DNA of 64,000 nt from an uncultured Candidatus Thioglobus sp. (GCA_905612405.1 CAJQRX010000012.1:29351-93350), one strand, 5' to 3'; shown: positions 1,382-43,073, numbered from the stretch's first letter. Translations and numbers: made by a program. Notes: generated by a model from the sequence alone, not told the origin.

Positions 1382-1588
1382 TTACTCCGAATGCTCTTTT
1401 GAGCAAAAAATTTTACCATTTTTAATAATCGCATCTGACTCTGGAACGTGGGTATTGCAAACAGAACATGCAAGCATTTTTTGTCCGGCTTCAGTCTTTA
1501 CATATTTAGATGAATTAGGATTAATAAACTTTTTAAAAAGAGAAATACCAACCCAGCCCAAAAGTAATACTAATATTAGTTTAATCAA
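1382..1588 (-). CDS. PP0621-family small membrane-anchored Cys-rich protein
   Basis: N-terminal TM helix, then MLACSVCNTHVP...FCSKEH. Confidence 0.7.
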   Translation of the reverse strand: MIKLILVLLLGWVGISLFKKFINPNSSKYVKTEAGQKMLACSVCNTHVPESDAIIKNGKIFCSKEHSE

Positions 1589-34074: not shown

Positions 34075-34656
34075 GTGTTTTACTTTTTAATTGCTAGCTA
34101 TTTACTAGGCTCCATCTCAAGTGCTATTATTATTTGCAAGATTTTGGGGCTTCCTGATCCAAGAACTCAAGGTTCTAAGAATCCTGGCGCAACAAATGTT
34201 CTTAGAATTGGTGGTAAAAAAGTAGCTGCATTTGTTCTATTATTTGATGGTTTAAAGGGTGCTTTACCAGTAATTCTAGCTACTTATTTCTTTGCTGTTA
34301 ATATATTTGAATTAACCATCATTTTACTTTGTGCATTTCTTGGACATATATTTCCAATTTTTTATGGCTTTAAAGGAGGAAAAGGTGTAGCAACTTACCT
34401 TGGGGGATTAATAGGTTTAAGCTTTTTTTTAGGATTAGCATTTGCAATTATCTGGCTTACCGTTGCTAAAATAGTAAAAATTTCATCTATTGCAGCATTA
34501 ACTGCCACATTACTTTCTCCCATTTATTTTTACTTTATTACTAGCGACTTAAAGGGCACTCTAGTAATTTTTCTCATGTCTCTTTTTATTTGCTTTACTC
34601 ATCGCGCAAATATTAAAAGAATTATGAGTGGAGATGAGGACATTGTTAGGTCTTAG
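34075..34656 (+). CDS. plsY: Glycerol-3-phosphate acyltransferase PlsY
   Basis: YLLGSI, GSKNPGATNVLR, GHIFP, GGKGVAT, HRANI. Confidence 0.96.
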   Translation: MFYFLIASYLLGSISSAIIICKILGLPDPRTQGSKNPGATNVLRIGGKKVAAFVLLFDGLKGALPVILATYFFAVNIFELTIILLCAFLGHIFPIFYGFKGGKGVATYLGGLIGLSFFLGLAFAIIWLTVAKIVKISSIAALTATLLSPIYFYFITSDLKGTLVIFLMSLFICFTHRANIKRIMSGDEDIVRS

Positions 34657-34698
34657 CCCATTATTAATAGGAGTTTTAGTGGCTTTAAAAGATTTAAA

Positions 34699-34731
34699 CT
34701 ATTCTGTTTCAATGCATATTCCCGACCTTAA
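34699..34731 (-). repeat. Degenerate copy of the yadH 3' end (att-like)
   Basis: Minus strand reads LRSGICIETE* versus YadH LSRGVSIKTE*. Confidence 0.6.
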
Positions 34732-34897: not shown

Positions 34898-36028
34898 TTA
34901 AATTCTTTCATAAACTATTTTTTTCCAGTCATAATTTTTGAACAATGAATTAATCACTATTATTTTTTGATTATCTAAATCAATCAAAATATTTTGACCA
35001 GCAAATCCACTCATACCTAATATTTTACTATCTTCCATTCCAATGATATCAAAATAAAATTGGCCGCCATATCTTTTTGAATAGGTGGCAATATCATCAG
35101 GTTTTGGGTTGTCATTGTCGTTCTTATCGATTCTTCTATCATAAACTGTTTTTAAATACTTACCAACACAAGTATCATTATTCCAATCATCCATTATTGC
35201 TTTTGCAATTCTAAGATAATCATATCTTGTTGCATAAAAACTATATCTTACTGTCGACTCATGTCCATAACTAGCCTTTCGTGTTAATTCAAAGTAAACA
35301 CTATTTTTAACTTTTGCATTTTCATTAAAAACACTATGTAATAATTTTTCCCAATCATTTCCTGATTTATAAATTACATAATTCATTAAAATATGAGTGG
35401 TTAAGGCGCTATAGTTATATACAGAGTCTGATTTTTGAGTATTCTGTAAATTCGATTCGACTATTGTTTCTAGTGAAGTCATATTTAAATTTACACCACT
35501 ACTCTTCCACTGATTATCTACTTGTGGGTGGAGTCTTTCACCAATATATTTTTGATCTCCTGCTCTCATATTTAAGAGATTAATTAATACTTGATCTTCA
35601 TATAAAGTATTATCAAGTAAGTCCCAATCTAATATTTCATCAACACTACTGATATATCCTTTACAAATTGCATGCCCTGTAACATAAGATACTAAACTTT
35701 TACCTATTGAATGAGAGGGTAACAAATCATCAATTATTTTAGGTGGTATATCAGACTCATCTATTACAATTTTATTATCTTCAAATAATAAATAACTAAT
35801 TAGTCCAGTTTTGTTATTATTTTTTAATTCTTTTAAAATATTCTTATCTTTTTGAAGATTTGATTCAAATTTATAATAATTATGAGCACCTTTAACTTCA
35901 TGCATCTCGTAAATAAATTGTTGGAATGATTCAGGGTAATGCCCTGGGATATACCAAGTATTAGTATTTTTTTGTGCTAATACTGAAACAGATAAAAAGA
36001 CAAGTAATGGTATTAATAATTTGCTCAT
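34898..36028 (-). CDS. Exported serine hydrolase (beta-lactamase/PBP-like fold)
   Basis: Signal peptide MSKLLIPLL.., SxxK motif (SIGK), LLNM, YNYS, SGFAGQ; start set to ATG 36028. Confidence 0.75.
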   Translation of the reverse strand: MSKLLIPLLVFLSVSVLAQKNTNTWYIPGHYPESFQQFIYEMHEVKGAHNYYKFESNLQKDKNILKELKNNNKTGLISYLLFEDNKIVIDESDIPPKIIDDLLPSHSIGKSLVSYVTGHAICKGYISSVDEILDWDLLDNTLYEDQVLINLLNMRAGDQKYIGERLHPQVDNQWKSSGVNLNMTSLETIVESNLQNTQKSDSVYNYSALTTHILMNYVIYKSGNDWEKLLHSVFNENAKVKNSVYFELTRKASYGHESTVRYSFYATRYDYLRIAKAIMDDWNNDTCVGKYLKTVYDRRIDKNDNDNPKPDDIATYSKRYGGQFYFDIIGMEDSKILGMSGFAGQNILIDLDNQKIIVINSLFKNYDWKKIVYERI

Positions 36029-36068
36029 ATATTGATTGTAAATCAACTTGGACTGAAGTCCAAATTTC
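36029..36068 (-). repeat. Upstream module copy A (dyad plus leaderless promoter)
   Basis: GAAATTTGGACTTCAGTCCAAGTTGATTTACAATCAATAT-ATG. Confidence 0.8.
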
Positions 36069-36131
36069 TTGAGATATATAAGGGGTAATTATGAATTATT
36101 GACTAATATTTTTTTAAATATTCTATATTTT

Positions 36132-36410
36132 TCATATTTCCCAAACAACAGTAGGCTCATTATCTTCATCTATATCATCATTTTCTGTCAAGGTAAATTG
36201 GAAAATCTTAATGGGCTTCCAAGCATCAAACTCTAGTTCTCCATAATTCTGACTTGCAAAATCTTCTAGTTCAACTTGTATTTCCATATCTTCTTCTAGG
36301 GTTTTGAATACTTCTTCTAGATCCAGAGCATCAACAATGAGAGGCACATCTGCTTCTTCAATAGCATCTCCTCCACTACTCAATTTTAAGATAACTCCAT
36401 ACTTTGCCAT
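36132..36410 (-). CDS. Small very acidic hypothetical protein
   Basis: 92 aa ORF with strong AGGAGG RBS; Asp/Glu-rich; no motif recognised. Confidence 0.7.
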   Translation of the reverse strand: MAKYGVILKLSSGGDAIEEADVPLIVDALDLEEVFKTLEEDMEIQVELEDFASQNYGELEFDAWKPIKIFQFTLTENDDIDEDNEPTVVWEI

Positions 36411-36466
36411 ACTTACTCCTCCTAACTAAAAACCTCTCCTAACAAAAATACTATTGGCTCACTAAT

Positions 36467-37006
36467 TCATTCATGGGTTACTTTTTGCAGATCATCTAGG
36501 TCGTAACCAAAGGAATCTACCCGAGCTACCAAGTTTGAGTAGTCTTGTTGGGAAATCGTTGGCGTTCGCGCCATAATCCATACATAGTCTCGACTGTTTC
36601 TCCCAATAATGGTTTGTTGGTAGTTATCATCTAAATATACAATTCTATAATCTGCCTTTATTGGCCATACAAACTGCATATCCCAAATCGCGTTAGTGCG
36701 CTTATCTTTAACAAATCCACGGGGTCGATAAATCTTAGTTGGACCGTTCAAACTACCTTTATTAAAAGTGAAGGTTGTTGCAATTGTTCCATCATTATCA
36801 CGCTGATAGGTTTCAATGGAATTGTATGCATCCCTTTCAAGAAACGTTGGGATAGTGGCAATTACGTACCAATCGCCCATGAACCGATCAAGATCAACAT
36901 AGTCCACAACTGGCATAGGCTTGAGTGAGCTACCACCTAACATTTGGTTACTAGAACACCCAATTAAACTAAGAGAAATTAATAAGATTAGAAGTAGTTT
37001 TTTCAT
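36467..37006 (-). CDS. blc: Outer membrane lipoprotein lipocalin (Blc family)
   Basis: Lipobox LIGC, DLDRFMGDWYVIA, YRIVYLDDNY, YVWIMARTP. Confidence 0.88.
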   Translation of the reverse strand: MKKLLLILLISLSLIGCSSNQMLGGSSLKPMPVVDYVDLDRFMGDWYVIATIPTFLERDAYNSIETYQRDNDGTIATTFTFNKGSLNGPTKIYRPRGFVKDKRTNAIWDMQFVWPIKADYRIVYLDDNYQQTIIGRNSRDYVWIMARTPTISQQDYSNLVARVDSFGYDLDDLQKVTHE

Positions 37007-37047
37007 TCTATTATTTTATATCAACTTTAACTTAAGTTGTACATTCG
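37007..37047 (-). repeat. Upstream module copy B
   Basis: GAATGTACAACTTAAGTTAAAGTTGATATAAAATAATAGA-ATG. Confidence 0.7.
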
Positions 37048-37075
37048 AGTTTTCGCTATTACACCGTTTCTTAAT

Positions 37076-37447
37076 CTATTGATCATCGACTGCATATTTT
37101 TTGAGAAGTTCCATTGGAATTATTTCCAATGCTCTTATATGCGTACTTTGTAAATTCAGTCTTGGTGCCATACCACTTTTTTCTGCTTCTAACCAACGCT
37201 CAGCACATACGCACCAACTATCGCCTAATTCCAAGCCTTCAAAGCCATAATCCGGCATAGGAGTAGATAAATCATTACCTTGGGATTTTGTGTAGTCTAA
37301 AAATTCCTGCGAAGTTTCAATACAAACTGTATGAGAACCAAGGTCATCTTTACAGGTATTACAATTACCATCTCGGTAGAATCCAGTTACTGGGTCCAAA
37401 CCACAGATTTCTAATTTTTCACCAAATACGTTAATTGATTCGTCCAT
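37076..37447 (-). CDS. DUF2237 family protein
   Basis: NVFGEKLEICGLDPVTGFYRDG.C..DLGSHTVC, GNDLSTP, WCVCAERW. Confidence 0.88.
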   Translation of the reverse strand: MDESINVFGEKLEICGLDPVTGFYRDGNCNTCKDDLGSHTVCIETSQEFLDYTKSQGNDLSTPMPDYGFEGLELGDSWCVCAERWLEAEKSGMAPRLNLQSTHIRALEIIPMELLKKYAVDDQ

Positions 37448-37493
37448 TGTTATAAATATTCCTTTAATGTTAAGTGTCTGTAAGTGTACTAAA

Positions 37494-37526
37494 TTACTCT
37501 GTCTTGATACTCACTTCCCTACTAAA
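37494..37526 (-). repeat. Displaced copy of the yadH 3' end (att-like)
   Basis: Plus-strand ctaaattactctgtcttgatactcact versus ctaaattactctgtcttaatactaact at 39690; minus strand reads FSREVSIKTE*. Confidence 0.8.
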
Positions 37527-37589
37527 TCGCATAGGTACAACATATCTTTAATCGACATTTTTTTAAAAAAGGTCAGAACTGACTCACAT

Positions 37590-37610
37590 TTAATTGAGTA
37601 GTTTTTTCAT
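37590..37610 (-). pseudogene. Empty cassette stub MKKLLN*
   Basis: ATG AAA AAA CTA CTC AAT TAA; first 5 codons identical to the 39558 gene; preceded by module C. Confidence 0.65.
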
Positions 37611-37657
37611 TCTATTATTTTATATCAACTTAAACTAAAGTCCAAATTTCGTTTGAT
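37611..37657 (-). repeat. Upstream module copy C
   Basis: ATCAAACGAAATTTGGACTTTAGTTTAAGTTGATATAAAATAATAGA-ATG. Confidence 0.82.
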
Positions 37658-37680
37658 GTGTGAGGGAGGGAGGGGGTTAA

Positions 37681-39558
37681 TTACTGACCGAGTTCAGCAG
37701 CCAGTTCTGCTTCAAAAGCCGCGATTTCATCTTCTACTGATTGCTGCTCAGTATCAACAGTATCGGTTTCTGCTGCCTTAGCAGCTTCTTCAGCAAGTTC
37801 CACTGCCAGTTCGGCTTCAAATGCTGCGATTTCATCTTCTGCTGATTGCTCAGTATCAACAGTGTCGGTTTCTGCTGCCTTAGCAGCTTTTTCTGCCTTA
37901 GTACCAATTTTCTCCACACCTACATATACTGCCCTGCTACCAGAGAAACCCTTTGAGTATTTGTGAGTGAAAAAAGCTCTGTAGGCTTCACCTTCAAATT
38001 CGAAGAAATACGATTGTATCTCACAGCCATAGTTTCCAAAGATTCCACTTTGTTCTTTAACTGATGGTCTTCTAAATGTTCCATCACCGTTACCAAAGAA
38101 TATATTATTAATTTGATTATTACACTCAAACGTATGATGTTCATCTCTAAAGGCATAAAAATCCATATAACCATCTTGATTTATATCAAAGTTGTACAAA
38201 GCCGTTGTTGCGCCAGGGTCAATTTCATGGGTATCAGAAACTGTAAACTTACCATTATCATTTCTAAAGAAAATCATTTCTCCAACTGGCTTGCACTGAG
38301 ATGGCCTGTGATAAACTTTTTCTGATGCTAATTTTTTGCAAAGTTGGTTTTCTTTCCAGGTAGCTGTATCAAAGTCGCCATCACCGTCCATGTCGAACTG
38401 ATGAGAACGATAGGATTCACTGATTAACTTAAATCTTTCACTCGTTTTATATCCAGGCACTGCCCACCCTTTCTTTTTTTGTTCCCAGCCTTGCCAGCTT
38501 TTAAATAGCTCCTCTTTATCTGGCTTTTTGCTGGAAATATACTTGTCTAACAGTTTTAATTGTATTCTGCCGTTGATATAAGTCACTTCTGACCAACACC
38601 AATCTAAATACCCCTTGCTACAGTTATGAAATAAGATTCCGCCTTTTTTGTTAGGATAAACAGAGAGTGATGTTTTAGATGTGTGAAGGCTTGGAGGATT
38701 ACTCTGATAAATGCATTCCAAGGTTTTCCCGTTGCAAACCCCAACCCCTCCACCTTGATGACTACCACCCCATGATATATCGATGAATTCATCATAGCCA
38801 TCATCATCTAAATCCCCAGCTACGAAGTCATGGGAGTATAGTGGTTTGCCAAATTTTGAATAGCTTTCTGTCTCAAAGTCATAGATGAAGTTTACCTCTC
38901 TCCATGATGAATCCTGACTCCTACCATCTTCAAGCATTCCTGCAATTACTAATTCAGTTAAGCCATCTTGATTAACATCTGTCAAGACCATTCGAAGAGT
39001 AGAAGTTGGTATTTCTACAATTGGGTTTTTAATGACTTGTACAGAATTTGAGCCAAGTTCTTCTGTAATAACTTCAATGGTTGCAATCTCCATTTGACCA
39101 GGTCGATCTGTTTTCTCATTTGTCTCTACTTGAATATTTTCAGCTTTACCAACTATTTCAAGATTTCCATTTTTATTAACTCGATGGATAAGCAAGCCTG
39201 ATGTTTGCCATACATTTTTGACCCAATGTCCAACTTCGATTTTAAGCTTAGTATCTAGTACAGCAATGATTGAGCACTTATTGGGACTCTTACGATAAAA
39301 ATTTTTATCGAGGTCTTTACAACTTGATGATGTCTCAGTATCCACAAAAGATTCATATTTAACAGCTTTTATTGAAGACCCTGAATTAGAAATAGATGAA
39401 GATGAAGATGATTGTTCATTACCACCATCACAGTTGTATACAAAATATGAACCATCCGCAGAAATACTTTTCACTGGTTCACTGCCATCAGGACAGGAAC
39501 CTGCAAAACTTTGCACTGAAAAGAAAGATAGAATTAAAAGTAAGAGTAGTTTTTTCAT
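37681..39558 (-). CDS. Exported FG-GAP/VCBS-repeat (Ca-binding beta-propeller-like) protein
   Basis: Signal peptide; DVNQDG, DLDDDGYDE, DMDGDGDFD, DINQDGYMD, NGDGTF motifs; Ser-rich linker; acidic C-terminal repeats; start set to ATG 39558. Confidence 0.75.
   Translation of the reverse strand: MKKLLLLLILSFFSVQSFAGSCPDGSEPVKSISADGSYFVYNCDGGNEQSSSSSSISNSGSSIKAVKYESFVDTETSSSCKDLDKNFYRKSPNKCSIIAVLDTKLKIEVGHWVKNVWQTSGLLIHRVNKNGNLEIVGKAENIQVETNEKTDRPGQMEIATIEVITEELGSNSVQVIKNPIVEIPTSTLRMVLTDVNQDGLTELVIAGMLEDGRSQDSSWREVNFIYDFETESYSKFGKPLYSHDFVAGDLDDDGYDEFIDISWGGSHQGGGVGVCNGKTLECIYQSNPPSLHTSKTSLSVYPNKKGGILFHNCSKGYLDWCWSEVTYINGRIQLKLLDKYISSKKPDKEELFKSWQGWEQKKKGWAVPGYKTSERFKLISESYRSHQFDMDGDGDFDTATWKENQLCKKLASEKVYHRPSQCKPVGEMIFFRNDNGKFTVSDTHEIDPGATTALYNFDINQDGYMDFYAFRDEHHTFECNNQINNIFFGNGDGTFRRPSVKEQSGIFGNYGCEIQSYFFEFEGEAYRAFFTHKYSKGFSGSRAVYVGVEKIGTKAEKAAKAAETDTVDTEQSAEDEIAAFEAELAVELAEEAAKAAETDTVDTEQQSVEDEIAAFEAELAAELGQ
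37691..37889 (-). repeat. Intragenic tandem duplication (about 34 codons x2)
   Basis: AAKAAETDTVDTEQ(Q)SxEDEIAAFEAELAxEL twice; DNA copies near 37691-37787 and 37796-37889. Confidence 0.9.
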
Positions 39559-39605
39559 ACTAAGATTGTATATCAACTTGGACTAAAGTCCAAATTTCGT
39601 TTGAT
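39559..39605 (-). repeat. Upstream module copy D
   Basis: ATCAAACGAAATTTGGACTTTAGTCCAAGTTGATATACAATCTTAGT-ATG. Confidence 0.85.
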
Positions 39606-39694
39606 ATATGTGAAAAAAGACTGGTTTTTTAATACACATTTAATACACATATACTTAAAAACCCTATTGGAGTAGTATCTTTAGGGGTGCTAAA

Positions 39695-40456
39695 TTACTC
39701 TGTCTTAATACTAACTCCTCGACTTAAAAGTTTATTAGCTATTAAGGCTAACATCACAATCATAATGCAAGGCACTAAAAAAGCCTTCCATAATTCCACG
39801 GACCCAATACCTAAAAATCCCATTCTAAAGGCATCCATCATATAATATATTGGATTAAAAATTGATATGTTCCTCCAGAAGTTTGGCAATATATCAATAC
39901 TATAAAACATACCACCAAGATAAGTTAGGGGCAGTAATACAAAATTTGGAACGATTGAAATATCATCAAAAGTCTTAGCAAAAACCGCATTGATAAAGCC
40001 AGCTAAAGCAAACATTACTGATGTTATAAGGAAGGTAATAGCAATAACTATAAAACTATTAATTTGAATTTTAACAAAAAATGATATTGTAAAGGTTACT
40101 GCTAGACCAATAGTTAGGCCTCTACAAACACCGCCACTAACAAACCCCAATAAAATCACCCAATTAGGAGTAGTAGAAACCAGTAATTCTTCAAAGCTAT
40201 TATTATATTTGGTCATAAAGAATGAGGAAACTGTATTGGCATAAGACTGCATAATTACTGTCATAAGGATAATTCCAGGAACAATGAAATCTAGATAATT
40301 AACACCCTGCATTTGACCAATTCTACTCCCCATTAAACCACCGAATATTAGTAAATATAAAGAGGTTGTTATAATTGGCGGGATTATCGTTTGAATCCAA
40401 ATTCGCACAAATCTAAGTATTTCTTTTGTAACAATTGTTTTATAAGCAATCCACAT
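39695..40456 (-). CDS. yadH: ABC-2 transporter permease YadH
   Basis: KEILRFVRIWIQT, PPIITTSLY, YANTVSSFF, PLTYLGGMFY, NPIYYM. Confidence 0.9.
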   Translation of the reverse strand: MWIAYKTIVTKEILRFVRIWIQTIIPPIITTSLYLLIFGGLMGSRIGQMQGVNYLDFIVPGIILMTVIMQSYANTVSSFFMTKYNNSFEELLVSTTPNWVILLGFVSGGVCRGLTIGLAVTFTISFFVKIQINSFIVIAITFLITSVMFALAGFINAVFAKTFDDISIVPNFVLLPLTYLGGMFYSIDILPNFWRNISIFNPIYYMMDAFRMGFLGIGSVELWKAFLVPCIMIVMLALIANKLLSRGVSIKTE

Positions 40457-41528: not shown

Positions 41529-43073
41529 ATGCCAACCCAAAAAAATGTTGAGTTACCCGATATAGGTGATTTTGACTCCGTTGATGTTATTGAAGTTTTA
41601 GTGAAAGTTGGTGATATTGTCAATGAAAATGACAGCCTCATTACTCTCGAAACTGACAAAGCTACAATGGAAATCCCTGCGCCCTTTTCAGGAAAGGTAG
41701 CTAGTCTTGAAGTAAAAGTTGGTGATAAGATAGCTAAAGGTGAACTCATTCTTACTCTTGAGAGTGATTCTGAAATAGCAGAAGACACTTCTAATCAAAC
41801 AGCTGCTCCAAGCAATTCAAAAACAACTAATAGTTCAAACCATAAGTCAAGCGTTACACAAAAAAATGTTGAGTTACCCGATATAGGTGATTTTGACTCC
41901 GTTGATGTTATTGAAGTTTTAGTGAAAGTTGGTGATATTGTCAATGAAAATGACAGCCTCATTACTCTCGAAACTGACAAAGCTACAATGGAAATCCCTG
42001 CGCCCTTTTCAGGAAAGGTAGCTAGTCTTGAAGTAAAAGTTGGTGATAAGATAGCTAAAGGTGAACTCATTCTTACTCTTGAGAGTGATTCTGAAATAGC
42101 AGAAGACACTTCTAATCAAACAGCTGCTCCAAGCAATTCAAAAACAACTAATAGTTCAAATATTGAGATTAAAAAGCCAAGTACTCCAACTCCAATAACT
42201 GAAAGCCCTCAAGAAGAAATTTCTTTAAATACTGATTCAAATTCTCATGCCTCGCCCTCAATAAGGAAGTTAGCAAGAGAGCTTGGAGTTAGCTTATCAA
42301 AAATAAAGGGTACTGGTAAAAAAGGTAGAGTCCTGGAGGAAGATTTAAAGTCTTTTGTAAAGCAAATAGTTATTCATGGAGATACTGTAAATGAAGTGGA
42401 AATAGTTCCTTTATCCAGAATTAAGAAACTATCTGGAAAACACCTCTCAAATAGCTGGAGCTCAATACCTCATGTAACTCAATTTGATGAAGTTAATATT
42501 GAGCAATTAGAGAAATTTCGCAAGCATCAAAAAGAAAGAAATATTAAATTAAGCCCCCTAGTTTTCATTATGAAAGCTGTTGTTCAAGTTTTGAAGCGTC
42601 ATCCAAACTTCAATGCCTCACTTGATGAAACGGGTGAAAATTTAATAGTAAAAAAATACTTTAATCTTGGGATTGCAGTTGATACTCCAAATGGATTACT
42701 TGTTCCTGTTGTGAAAGATGTTGGCAAAAAATCATTAGTTGAACTTGCTGAAGAGCTCGCTGACATTTCTTCAAGAGCTAGAGAAGGTCAATTACAGGCA
42801 AGTGAAATGAAAGGTGCAGGTTTTACGATTTCAAGTTTAGGTGGAATCGGTGGGACTCAATTTACACCAATTATTAATTCGCCTGAAGTAGCAATTTTAG
42901 GAGTCTCTAGAACTCAAATAAAGCCAGTTTGGAACGGGAGTTCTTTTGAACCTACAGCAATGATTCCACTAGCACTTTCATATGATCACAGGGTTATAGA
43001 TGGGGCTGAAGGTGCAAAATTTATGGCTGAACTAAATCAAGTTCTTAGCAATATTATGGAGATGTTATTATGA
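41529..43073 (+). CDS. aceF: Dihydrolipoamide acetyltransferase (PDH E2), two lipoyl domains
   Basis: Two ETDKATME lipoyl motifs, HASPSIRKLARELG, DHRVIDG. Confidence 0.93.
   Translation: MPTQKNVELPDIGDFDSVDVIEVLVKVGDIVNENDSLITLETDKATMEIPAPFSGKVASLEVKVGDKIAKGELILTLESDSEIAEDTSNQTAAPSNSKTTNSSNHKSSVTQKNVELPDIGDFDSVDVIEVLVKVGDIVNENDSLITLETDKATMEIPAPFSGKVASLEVKVGDKIAKGELILTLESDSEIAEDTSNQTAAPSNSKTTNSSNIEIKKPSTPTPITESPQEEISLNTDSNSHASPSIRKLARELGVSLSKIKGTGKKGRVLEEDLKSFVKQIVIHGDTVNEVEIVPLSRIKKLSGKHLSNSWSSIPHVTQFDEVNIEQLEKFRKHQKERNIKLSPLVFIMKAVVQVLKRHPNFNASLDETGENLIVKKYFNLGIAVDTPNGLLVPVVKDVGKKSLVELAEELADISSRAREGQLQASEMKGAGFTISSLGGIGGTQFTPIINSPEVAILGVSRTQIKPVWNGSSFEPTAMIPLALSYDHRVIDGAEGAKFMAELNQVLSNIMEMLL
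41538..42160 (+). repeat. Direct repeat of 302 bp, period 321 bp (lipoyl domain plus linker)
   Basis: 41538-41839 matches 41859-42160 with no differences seen by eye. Confidence 0.92.

Follow-up and report, generated by a model that had tools for sequence, protein, structure and literature searches.

A short oriented repeat bounds accessory gene cassettes that appear to be exchanged between Pseudothioglobus genomes

Why does one promoter-like module recur in front of unrelated genes within a single small islet? A 64,000-nt stretch of DNA from an uncultured Candidatus Thioglobus sp. (GCA_905612405.1 CAJQRX010000012.1:29351-93350; hereafter the window) carries four minus-strand copies, A to D, of such a module between an ABC-2 permease gene and plsY, and a first, sequence-only reading took the module for a standard expression and export header that may double as an integron-like recombination point. 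The host genus is taken to be Pseudothioglobus (marine, SUP05 group), and the window's own genome, G000, is 68% complete. Each copy contains ACTT-N6-AAGTTGAT-TA(C/A)AAT-N6-ATG at the place claimed and leaves no room for a Shine-Dalgarno sequence, while in A, C and D TTGGAC lies 17 nt 5' of the -10 box, and A and D have the perfect palindrome. A profile built from the four copies, which themselves score 66–78 bits, finds no further copy in the window, as had been stated. Across 1.09 Mb of G000 the same profile identified one independent fifth copy (G000:C6:7831, 64 bits) and nothing else above 14 bits, with a shuffled genome reaching at most 7.6 bits. The gene behind this fifth copy is a paralog of cargo D, and a partial repeat follows the stop codon of that paralog. 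Of the cargos, which had been described as unrelated, D has an FG-GAP/VCBS match, B is Lipocalin_2 and C is a 6-codon stub; cargo A gave no Pfam, NCBIfam or PHROG match at 1e-3, but it has Atlas neighbours related to beta-lactamases (score 0.99; 16% of members carry PF00144). Three features had been overlooked: the conserved unit reaches ~26–35 bp further 5', copy B has lost this added part, and the 3' end of the permease gene is duplicated within the islet.

When 62 sites anchored on the ACTT-N6-AAGT dyad were aligned, conservation continued ~26 bp 5' of the dyad. A profile of that part defines a 35-bp oriented repeat, L (consensus ACCCTCCCTCACACATCAAACGAAATTTGGACTTT), and picks up many sites that have no dyad. 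Base positions within L are numbered L0–L34 and the promoter head just 3' of it is termed R; labels such as L081 or L424 denote fetched loci and G numbers denote genomes. Within the window, L is whole in copies D and C, has lost its left half to erosion in A and is gone from B. The site set comprises 434 distinct sites drawn from genomes and metagenome contigs, and conservation and head counts refer to the 403 with enough flank. Conservation is 0.76–1.00 across L2–L34 and 0.47 at L35, values that are partly circular because the sites were picked with the L profile itself. An 80-bp extension precedes L in full at 46 of 259 sites and is cut to varying lengths in others, giving a graded left edge. 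A range search allowing two mismatches, with the reversed pattern as control, located L in 38 of the 42 other genus genomes, with as many as 33 copies in one genome, and in 2/2 and 1/1 genomes of two sister genera, and in none of the 76 remaining family genomes (control also 0). L was likewise not found in 400 other gammaproteobacterial genomes. The largest arrays hold ~17 sites in 33 kb beside tRNA-Met (G047).

Several further observations concern the repeat itself. Exact L occurs on 1.2–5.4 kb contigs binned as Dehalococcoidales, alphaproteobacterial and Poseidoniales metagenome-assembled genomes (loci L103, L118, L133, L138, L167 and L173), likely mis-binned Pseudothioglobus DNA, with cross-taxon transfer as the other possibility. 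At locus L176 (~1500–1560, minus strand) an inverted partial L is joined directly to an L copy, forming a 19-bp perfect inverted repeat with a 15-nt centre, the sole head-to-head case seen. In a comparison of locus L234 with G017:C57, three L sites recur with unchanged spacing but inverted, 35 kb away on the same scaffold (1633/2930/4163 plus; 37524/38757/40054 minus), representing an inverted duplication or an assembly artefact. The repeat was also considered as the end of a small open reading frame (a frame ending in TGA) and as a structured RNA. Both were rejected: substitutions by codon position (84/115/117) show no third-position excess, and there is no Rfam match beyond a neighbouring tRNA and no folding excess.

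Comparison of genomes indicates that L bounds movable units. Neighbouring copies no more than 6 kb apart share a strand in 216 of 218 pairs (median spacing 1.16 kb), and L keeps this orientation regardless of the 23 among 102 adjacent genes that run antisense to it. These adjacent genes are mostly accessory, with an ortholog in G000 for 13/102 against 306/520 for genes more than 3 kb away, so that the motif does not stand mainly before stable core genes as an ordinary regulon would. Breakpoints fall at the module as anticipated: the upstream neighbour had changed in 76 of 81 L-headed homologous pairs and in 134 of 1299 others (15/20 and 4/55, respectively, above 92% identity; 19/21 and 14/73 by family), in loci chosen for holding L and with a control of mostly core genes. 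Where the same upstream DNA leads into different cargos, homology stops within 52 nt past L27 in 43 of 52 pairs. Copies consisting of L only close cassettes right after stop codons (e.g. G000:C6:9367), with 45 sites lying no more than 20 nt from a same-strand stop. The 181 L-to-L cassettes include 17 families that keep nearly the same length wherever they recur, 12 of them with both neighbours changed in at least one pair; one 678-bp cassette sits between two L copies in the permease locus of G019, is missing from G002 and reappears in a tRNA-Met array of G041. One trait of integrons, an array of units re-ordered between co-oriented repeated sites, is found here. The comparison gives strong support to the movement of cassettes at L, which is very likely.

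The position of exchange within L was mapped from minor alleles, with linkage computed at 95% flank identity over pairs that are not independent. Alleles at L0–9 are tied to the upstream flank in 42/113 cases and those at L10–24 in 5/76; linkage to the cargo is 5/69 at L10–24, 9/17 at L25–29 and 35/50 at L30–34. The exchange zone therefore maps to L10–24, upstream of the dyad, where alleles are linked to neither flank. Trios of empty and filled sites agree in part: the comparison of G002 (empty) with G019 (filled) places the crossing between L11 and L17, and two further trios cross near L0 and 5' of L within the extension. That the crossover point varies favours homology-driven exchange over one fixed cut.

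This mapping bears directly on the sequence-only proposal that the ACTT-N6-AAGT dyad is a tyrosine-recombinase core with crossover in its 6-bp spacer. The dyad is indeed present in all four window copies, and its pattern in 35 of 43 genus genomes (one control match), but it accompanies only 104 of 403 L sites, is missing at the empty site of G002 and has a broken left arm in the copy-B orthologs. It begins at L30 and so rides with the cargo, and both of its arms are linked to the downstream gene, with exchange mapping 5' of it. Allele linkage and the cassette trios together largely refute a dyad crossover, which now seems hardly credible.

What remains of the module is a predicted promoter. 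An R head occurs at 156 of 403 sites, with the -10 box at L49; an ATG or GTG follows 6 nt on in 93 of the 156, and 91 of these 93 have a TA(C/T/A)AAT box, so the claimed spacing of box and start codon is conserved well beyond the window. R is accordingly predicted to be a leaderless-type promoter. A crude rule predicts secretion for 46 of the 93 leaderless-type cargos, the remainder being 23 stubs and 24 other proteins. This bears out the export-header description in part and shows it to be too narrow, given the antisense genes beside L. Likewise, the idea of a header doubling as a recombination point holds in that the module marks where the variable cassettes of flexible islets are exchanged, and fails in that the dyad is not the crossover. 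The head is best regarded as one optional, if the commonest, cassette head that we infer to be a passenger. A second cluster of homology starts lies inside the coding start (26/118 pairs), and a Cys-to-Cys N-terminal tag is found in 16 proteins. At loci L081–L083 (G047:C1:69000-102200) and L098 (G022:C4), an array of ~12 large FG-GAP/VCBS-type paralogs, predicted to be secreted, shares a signal peptide and Cys-to-Cys tag, and several of these proteins end in an acidic tail resembling the C-terminus of cargo D. The perfect palindrome shared by A and D (plus strand, 36048-36063 and 39578-39593) is scored as an intrinsic terminator of transcription directed against the cassette; in its commoner T variant, pairing would be confined to the opposite strand. 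A consensus promoter scan of the islet gave no excess (26 vs 23.6 in shuffles), with A, C and D among those listed.

Within the window, the islet lies between two core genes, and all of its features described here are on the minus strand. The ABC-2 permease gene (39695..40456; Pfam PF01061), presumably yadH-like, has its 3' end as the insertion site, its final 36 nt forming an att-like core (39695..39730) that is duplicated inside the islet at 37494..37529 (28/36 nt; the next best match genome-wide is 24/36). A duplicated gene end flanking an islet is the scar pattern of integrase-type insertion at gene ends. We therefore infer that the permease 3' end hosted such an insertion, and the second copy is likely the scar of an earlier integration; a third copy at 34678-34731, 61% alike and below 23/36, was not counted. 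G002 and G019 carry the same second copy, trailed there by tandem arm-like direct repeats and then L. Between the att-like core and L of the window lie two tandem 11-bp direct repeats (39628..39649), by their position likely integrase arm-type sites, and similar repeats separate tRNA att copies from L in other genomes.

Downstream, L of copy D (39585..39619; exchange zone 39609-39595) is followed by its R head (39559..39584), made up of the right half of the dyad, the -10 box and 6 nt to ATG and predicted to be leaderless. Cargo D (37681..39558) encodes an FG-GAP/VCBS protein of 625 aa that is predicted to be secreted and bears the Cys-to-Cys N-terminal tag common to its paralogs; an 85% identical copy occurs in the tRNA-Met array of G047 (locus L082), and its acidic C-terminal tail (37681-37900) is an internal 102-bp repeat. 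L of copy C (37637..37671; exchange zone 37661-37647) lies 10 nt past the cargo D stop codon and closes that cassette, and the ensuing head, of the copy-B variant, with its 6-codon stub (37590..37636) is likely a deletion remnant. Beyond the second permease-end copy, a DUF2237 gene (37076..37447) is headed by L in G002 and G019 and has lost it in the window. Copy B (37007..37040) is a promoter head only, its L eroded (L score -20), and the G011 ortholog retains the right half of L; it precedes cargo B, a lipocalin lipoprotein (36467..37006; Pfam PF08212), and then a 92-aa acidic protein (36132..36410) whose family was unassigned by searches and which also occurs at a tRNA-Met array of G041. 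In copy A the left half of L (36055..36089; exchange zone 36079-36065) is eroded, and homology to G019 stops at 36077, inside L; at the same position in G002 and G019 an eroded L directly abuts plsY. The R head of copy A (36029..36054) leads into cargo A (34898..36028), a 376-aa predicted secreted beta-lactamase-related serine hydrolase not present at this locus in G002, G019 or G011. The core gene plsY (34075..34656, plus strand; Pfam PF02660) closes the islet. In most relatives shown the permease gene adjoins plsY without islet genes, and islets of varied content occupy this position in G000, G002, G019, G011, G007, G022, G005 and G041. Outside the islet, 300 bp of the pyruvate dehydrogenase E2 gene are exactly duplicated in tandem (two lipoyl domains; positions 41535-42155 of the window), in a part of the gene that differs in length among relatives.

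The origin of such islets is suggested by the elements found beside L arrays, which contain a tyrosine integrase, an excisionase and a primase/replication-type gene (protein matches to HTH_17/excisionase, Toprim primase and, weakly, a replication initiator) and are inserted at tRNA-Met, tRNA-Arg, tRNA-Ser, tRNA-His and tmRNA. L, often with its 80-bp extension, lies 80–300 bp inside att at the end opposite the integrase. Loci L081, L089 and L096 run from an att copy through tandem direct repeats and the extension to L and then cargo, with the integrase at the far end, pointing away from its att. Two hallmarks of tycheposons are found in these elements: a site-specific integrase at a tRNA or tmRNA gene with a partial repeat at the far end (the same three loci, L222 and L224), and an excisionase, replication module and cargo. 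The window retains only att-like repeats of such an element. Every one of the 16 distinct loci with both a P4-type integrase and L (19 rows, 3 of them duplicates) has the two antiparallel, and short XerC-like integrases are parallel to L in 3 cases and antiparallel in 2. At loci L061 (9367-9507, G000:C6) and L095 (14202), L is cut after its first 16–17 bases and joined to GAGAGGAT, next to a tRNA-Ser gene or tRNA-like 3' end.

Enzymes that might act on L were surveyed in five near-complete genomes, four of them closed, for the integron-integrase scan. The integron integrase TIGR02249 was above cut-off in 0/5, with no control genome passing the cut-off either, which agrees with the sequence-only view of an integron-like arrangement that is not attC-based and has no dedicated integrase alongside the module. 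Folding of the attC type is not seen against shuffles in the extended element (z = 0.29, 0.26) or copy C (z = 0.07, 0.78), and a fold is seen in A and D alone (z -2.2 to -3.0), where it comes from the optional dyad. RecA is encoded in 5/5 genomes and a resolvase in 1/5; the Y1 transposase PF01797 is in 0/5 (6/14 control genomes positive), as is the IS91-type PF04986, for which the control was blank as well, so an IS91-type enzyme may yet be present. Both G000 and the closed genome G019, the latter with L arrays, have XerC- and XerD-like proteins as their only tyrosine recombinases. L was considered as a dif site and rejected, matching the XerD-arm motif at 7/11 at best, with a normal dif on G000:C24 (~22812, minus-strand offset). 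With no dedicated candidate among the surveyed recombinases, no enzyme is identified for L. An island of G019 that bears L contains a YqaJ/RecE-like phage exonuclease gene (locus L092, 8645-9181), a possible source of annealase-type recombination. Natural transformation was rejected as a DNA route, ComEC being found in 0/5 genomes.

The explanation that best accommodates these data, and on balance a probable one, is homology-driven cassette exchange between co-oriented L copies, seeded by integrative elements. Tycheposon-like elements would bring L to their att sites in tRNA and tmRNA genes and at gene ends, the last represented here by the permease 3' end. Once two copies are present, RecA or a phage annealase could recombine them, and a unit consisting of the rest of L, its own promoter, a gene and the next L would loop out or insert. 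The integrase might be lost later while the array continues exchanging, with the dyad, -10 box, ATG and signal peptide carried along as the commonest promoter variant rather than as the crossover. Because ComEC is missing, the DNA would arrive in phage particles or vesicles.

A number of points weigh against this explanation. A match of 25–35 bp is short for RecA. The right edge of L is sharp, falling from 0.79 to 0.47 at L34–35, which homology alone does not explain, and A12, A19 and T27 stand at 1.00 against 0.78–0.91 at more variable positions (partly circular values), the look of a protein-binding site, with a small CAAA-N5-TTTG dyad among the near-invariant bases. From these bases and the sharp edge it can be argued that a protein also reads L. 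No integrase occurs at the permease site in any genome examined, and L was not in the stretch fetched at 8 integrase loci (7 short XerC-like, 1 P4-type). A tRNA or tmRNA piece lies within 600 nt 5' of only 18 of 229 L sites, a share that would fit with most sites lying inside arrays. Within-island control pairs for neighbour change number only two, both unchanged, among pairs that are not independent and loci preselected for L, and a fourth trio is a within-genome paralog set rather than a true empty site. Joints expected of circular cassettes in metagenome contigs (39589-37644 and 39722-34727) are indistinguishable from paralogous repeats or tandem arrays, and the 678-bp cassette gave no back-joint in contigs that offer it almost no cover. 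In all four runs contig depth dropped well below that of the neighbours over cargos D and A, but such depth does not give a proportion of cells and carries no weight here. The direction of gain or loss in individual events is not polarised, recombination being read from comparison.

Some of these features would also follow if a site-specific recombinase, of the host or supplied in trans by an element, cut within L10–24 and shuffled cassettes in the manner of an integron integrase. The narrow exchange zone, the near-invariant bases with their small dyad, strict co-orientation, the sharp right edge, exact L-to-L lengths and the L fused to an inverted L at locus L176 would all be accounted for. 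However, crossover points vary among trios and 15 bp of alleles are tied to neither flank, only XerC and XerD are universal and L resembles the XerD arm poorly while a normal dif lies on C24, Y1 transposase and IntI are missing and resolvase is confined to one genome in five, and elements with different integrases have the same L. Such an enzyme is therefore regarded as rather unlikely, though less so than an ordinary regulon, in which a promoter or operator has been copied before related genes and the rearrangements are a side effect. The conserved -10 box and spacing of R heads, and a palindrome overlapping the -35 region, are what a regulon would show, and in the available text on Borrelia erp genes a common promoter and leader are paired with unrelated bodies (PMC10016077). 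Yet most L sites have no R head, L holds its orientation before antisense genes, adjacent genes are accessory, copies of L alone close cassettes after stop codons, and the breakpoints map to the motif, which leaves a regulon very improbable.

A different role for the repeat, compatible with homology-driven exchange, is packaging. L and its extension would form a pac-like signal of satellite elements, from which a helper-phage terminase packages downstream cassettes one way, and recombination at L would then install the packaged DNA. A one-way terminase start at L would keep L conserved and oriented. Regions preceding the terminase gene of some phages contain a G/C run, an AT run and CACAC, and L with its extension has a comparable layout: a G or C run, a run of AT dinucleotides ending in TATAC, then CACAC. 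Four pelagiphages, HTVC010P, HTVC035P, Greip and HTVC100P, show this layout in the non-coding DNA ahead of the gene for the large terminase subunit, as do IMG/VR loci L424, L426 and L427. L is moreover common to elements with different integrases, lies at the element end and has an extension with a graded left edge, and SaPI pseudo-pac sites are a precedent for one-way packaging in the available text of PMC6687093. The pre-terminase window of HTVC010P was the best of 694 windows, but its score of 42 is below the best chance score of 44, in HMO-2011, and nhmmer returned nothing significant. INPHARED blastn gave no true match to L or the extension. IMG/VR pattern scans gave either no match or short matches without flanking similarity (6, 11 and 36 in three of the scans), and of eight matches to a looser pattern one lay before a confirmed terminase. 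The layout is missing from HTVC106P, three other phages and loci L425 and L428, the phage stretch is itself a putative pac site, terminase large subunit families were above cut-off in none of 43 genus genomes, and 29 island proteins of relatives included no terS or capsid gene (PHROGs), the mark of PICI-type packaging. Packaging from L is accordingly unlikely, somewhat more so than a dedicated recombinase. HTVC010P-type pelagiphages share a pre-terminase non-coding block of C run, AT run and CA repeat (locus L429, 560-720; L431, L432 and L437), which carries no role annotation in the records. A broader proposition is offered tentatively: a single short, oriented site, read either by a recombinase not yet described or by the terminases of helper phages, would serve both to load accessory genes into particles and to let them recombine into any array in the genome.

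If an integron-like system without an integron is confirmed, a streamlined, non-competent bacterium would have a genus-wide plug-in gene pool. Single accessory gene gain and loss without canonical mobile elements is presented as unresolved for SAR11 (available text of bioRxiv 10.64898/2026.10.07.757358 and PMC11796062), and more rearrangement data are called for in SUP05 (available text of PMC12421898). Here an abundant streamlined lineage offers an explicit, mappable junction sequence together with empty and filled alleles, so the mechanism is directly testable in cultured isolates and long-read viromes, and in metagenomes L can serve as a marker for the limits of the genus's flexible gene pool. 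No description of L was found in the literature searched, mostly without subscription papers or supplements (including the available text of PMC12379486).

Among known systems, chromosomal integrons such as the Vibrio VCR arrays are alike in their long arrays of one- or few-gene cassettes, a lineage-specific co-oriented repeat, fixed-length cassettes in varying orders and many small proteins that are secreted or of unidentified function. L arrays differ in having no IntI above cut-off and no attI/Pc platform seen, in occupying many loci, and in a repeat of 35 bp that is not an attC-type palindrome (z ~0.3); their cassettes carry their own promoters, and the crossover appears not to lie at a fixed base like that of GTTRRRY described in the available text of PMC8876359. 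The L array works like an integron array but is not an integron by the tests of membership. Its carriers resemble the tycheposons of Prochlorococcus, which, in the available text of bioRxiv 10.1101/2020.12.28.424599, combine cargo with a tyrosine integrase at tRNA or tmRNA, an excisionase and a replication gene, leave behind partial repeats of the tRNA and give rise to islands in a host that lacks competence genes. No shared internal repeat splitting the cargo into cassettes is described for them in that text, the L host is a gammaproteobacterium with no terS or capsid gene found, and the likeness is one of gene content and position. In the Borrelia erp genes and their upstream homology box, a conserved promoter and leader on unrelated exported bodies are re-paired by recombination (available text of PMC10016077), a likeness that applies to the subfamily with R, signal peptide and Cys-tag. 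The erp genes, however, are single sites on cp32 prophages, whereas the L junction lies 5' of the promoter, works without it and also flanks cytoplasmic and antisense genes. The SaPI pseudo-pac sites of island-mediated generalized transduction are likewise oriented chromosomal copies of an element-borne signal near accessory genes (available text of PMC6687093); no element terminase was found for L, whose packaging role is a candidate by layout only.

Two further systems move genes with no enzyme of their own. Xer-dependent pdif modules hold genes between short repeated sites, without an element-encoded recombinase, and their sites usually alternate in orientation. L hosts also encode XerC and XerD, but L is not dif-like, a normal dif lies elsewhere and L copies are direct. 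Neisseria minimal mobile elements and phage morons are self-contained gene units exchanged by homologous recombination with no dedicated enzyme. The homology of minimal mobile elements lies in flanking core genes, which fixes their locus, whereas ComEC is missing here and a portable L lets one cassette sit at unrelated loci.

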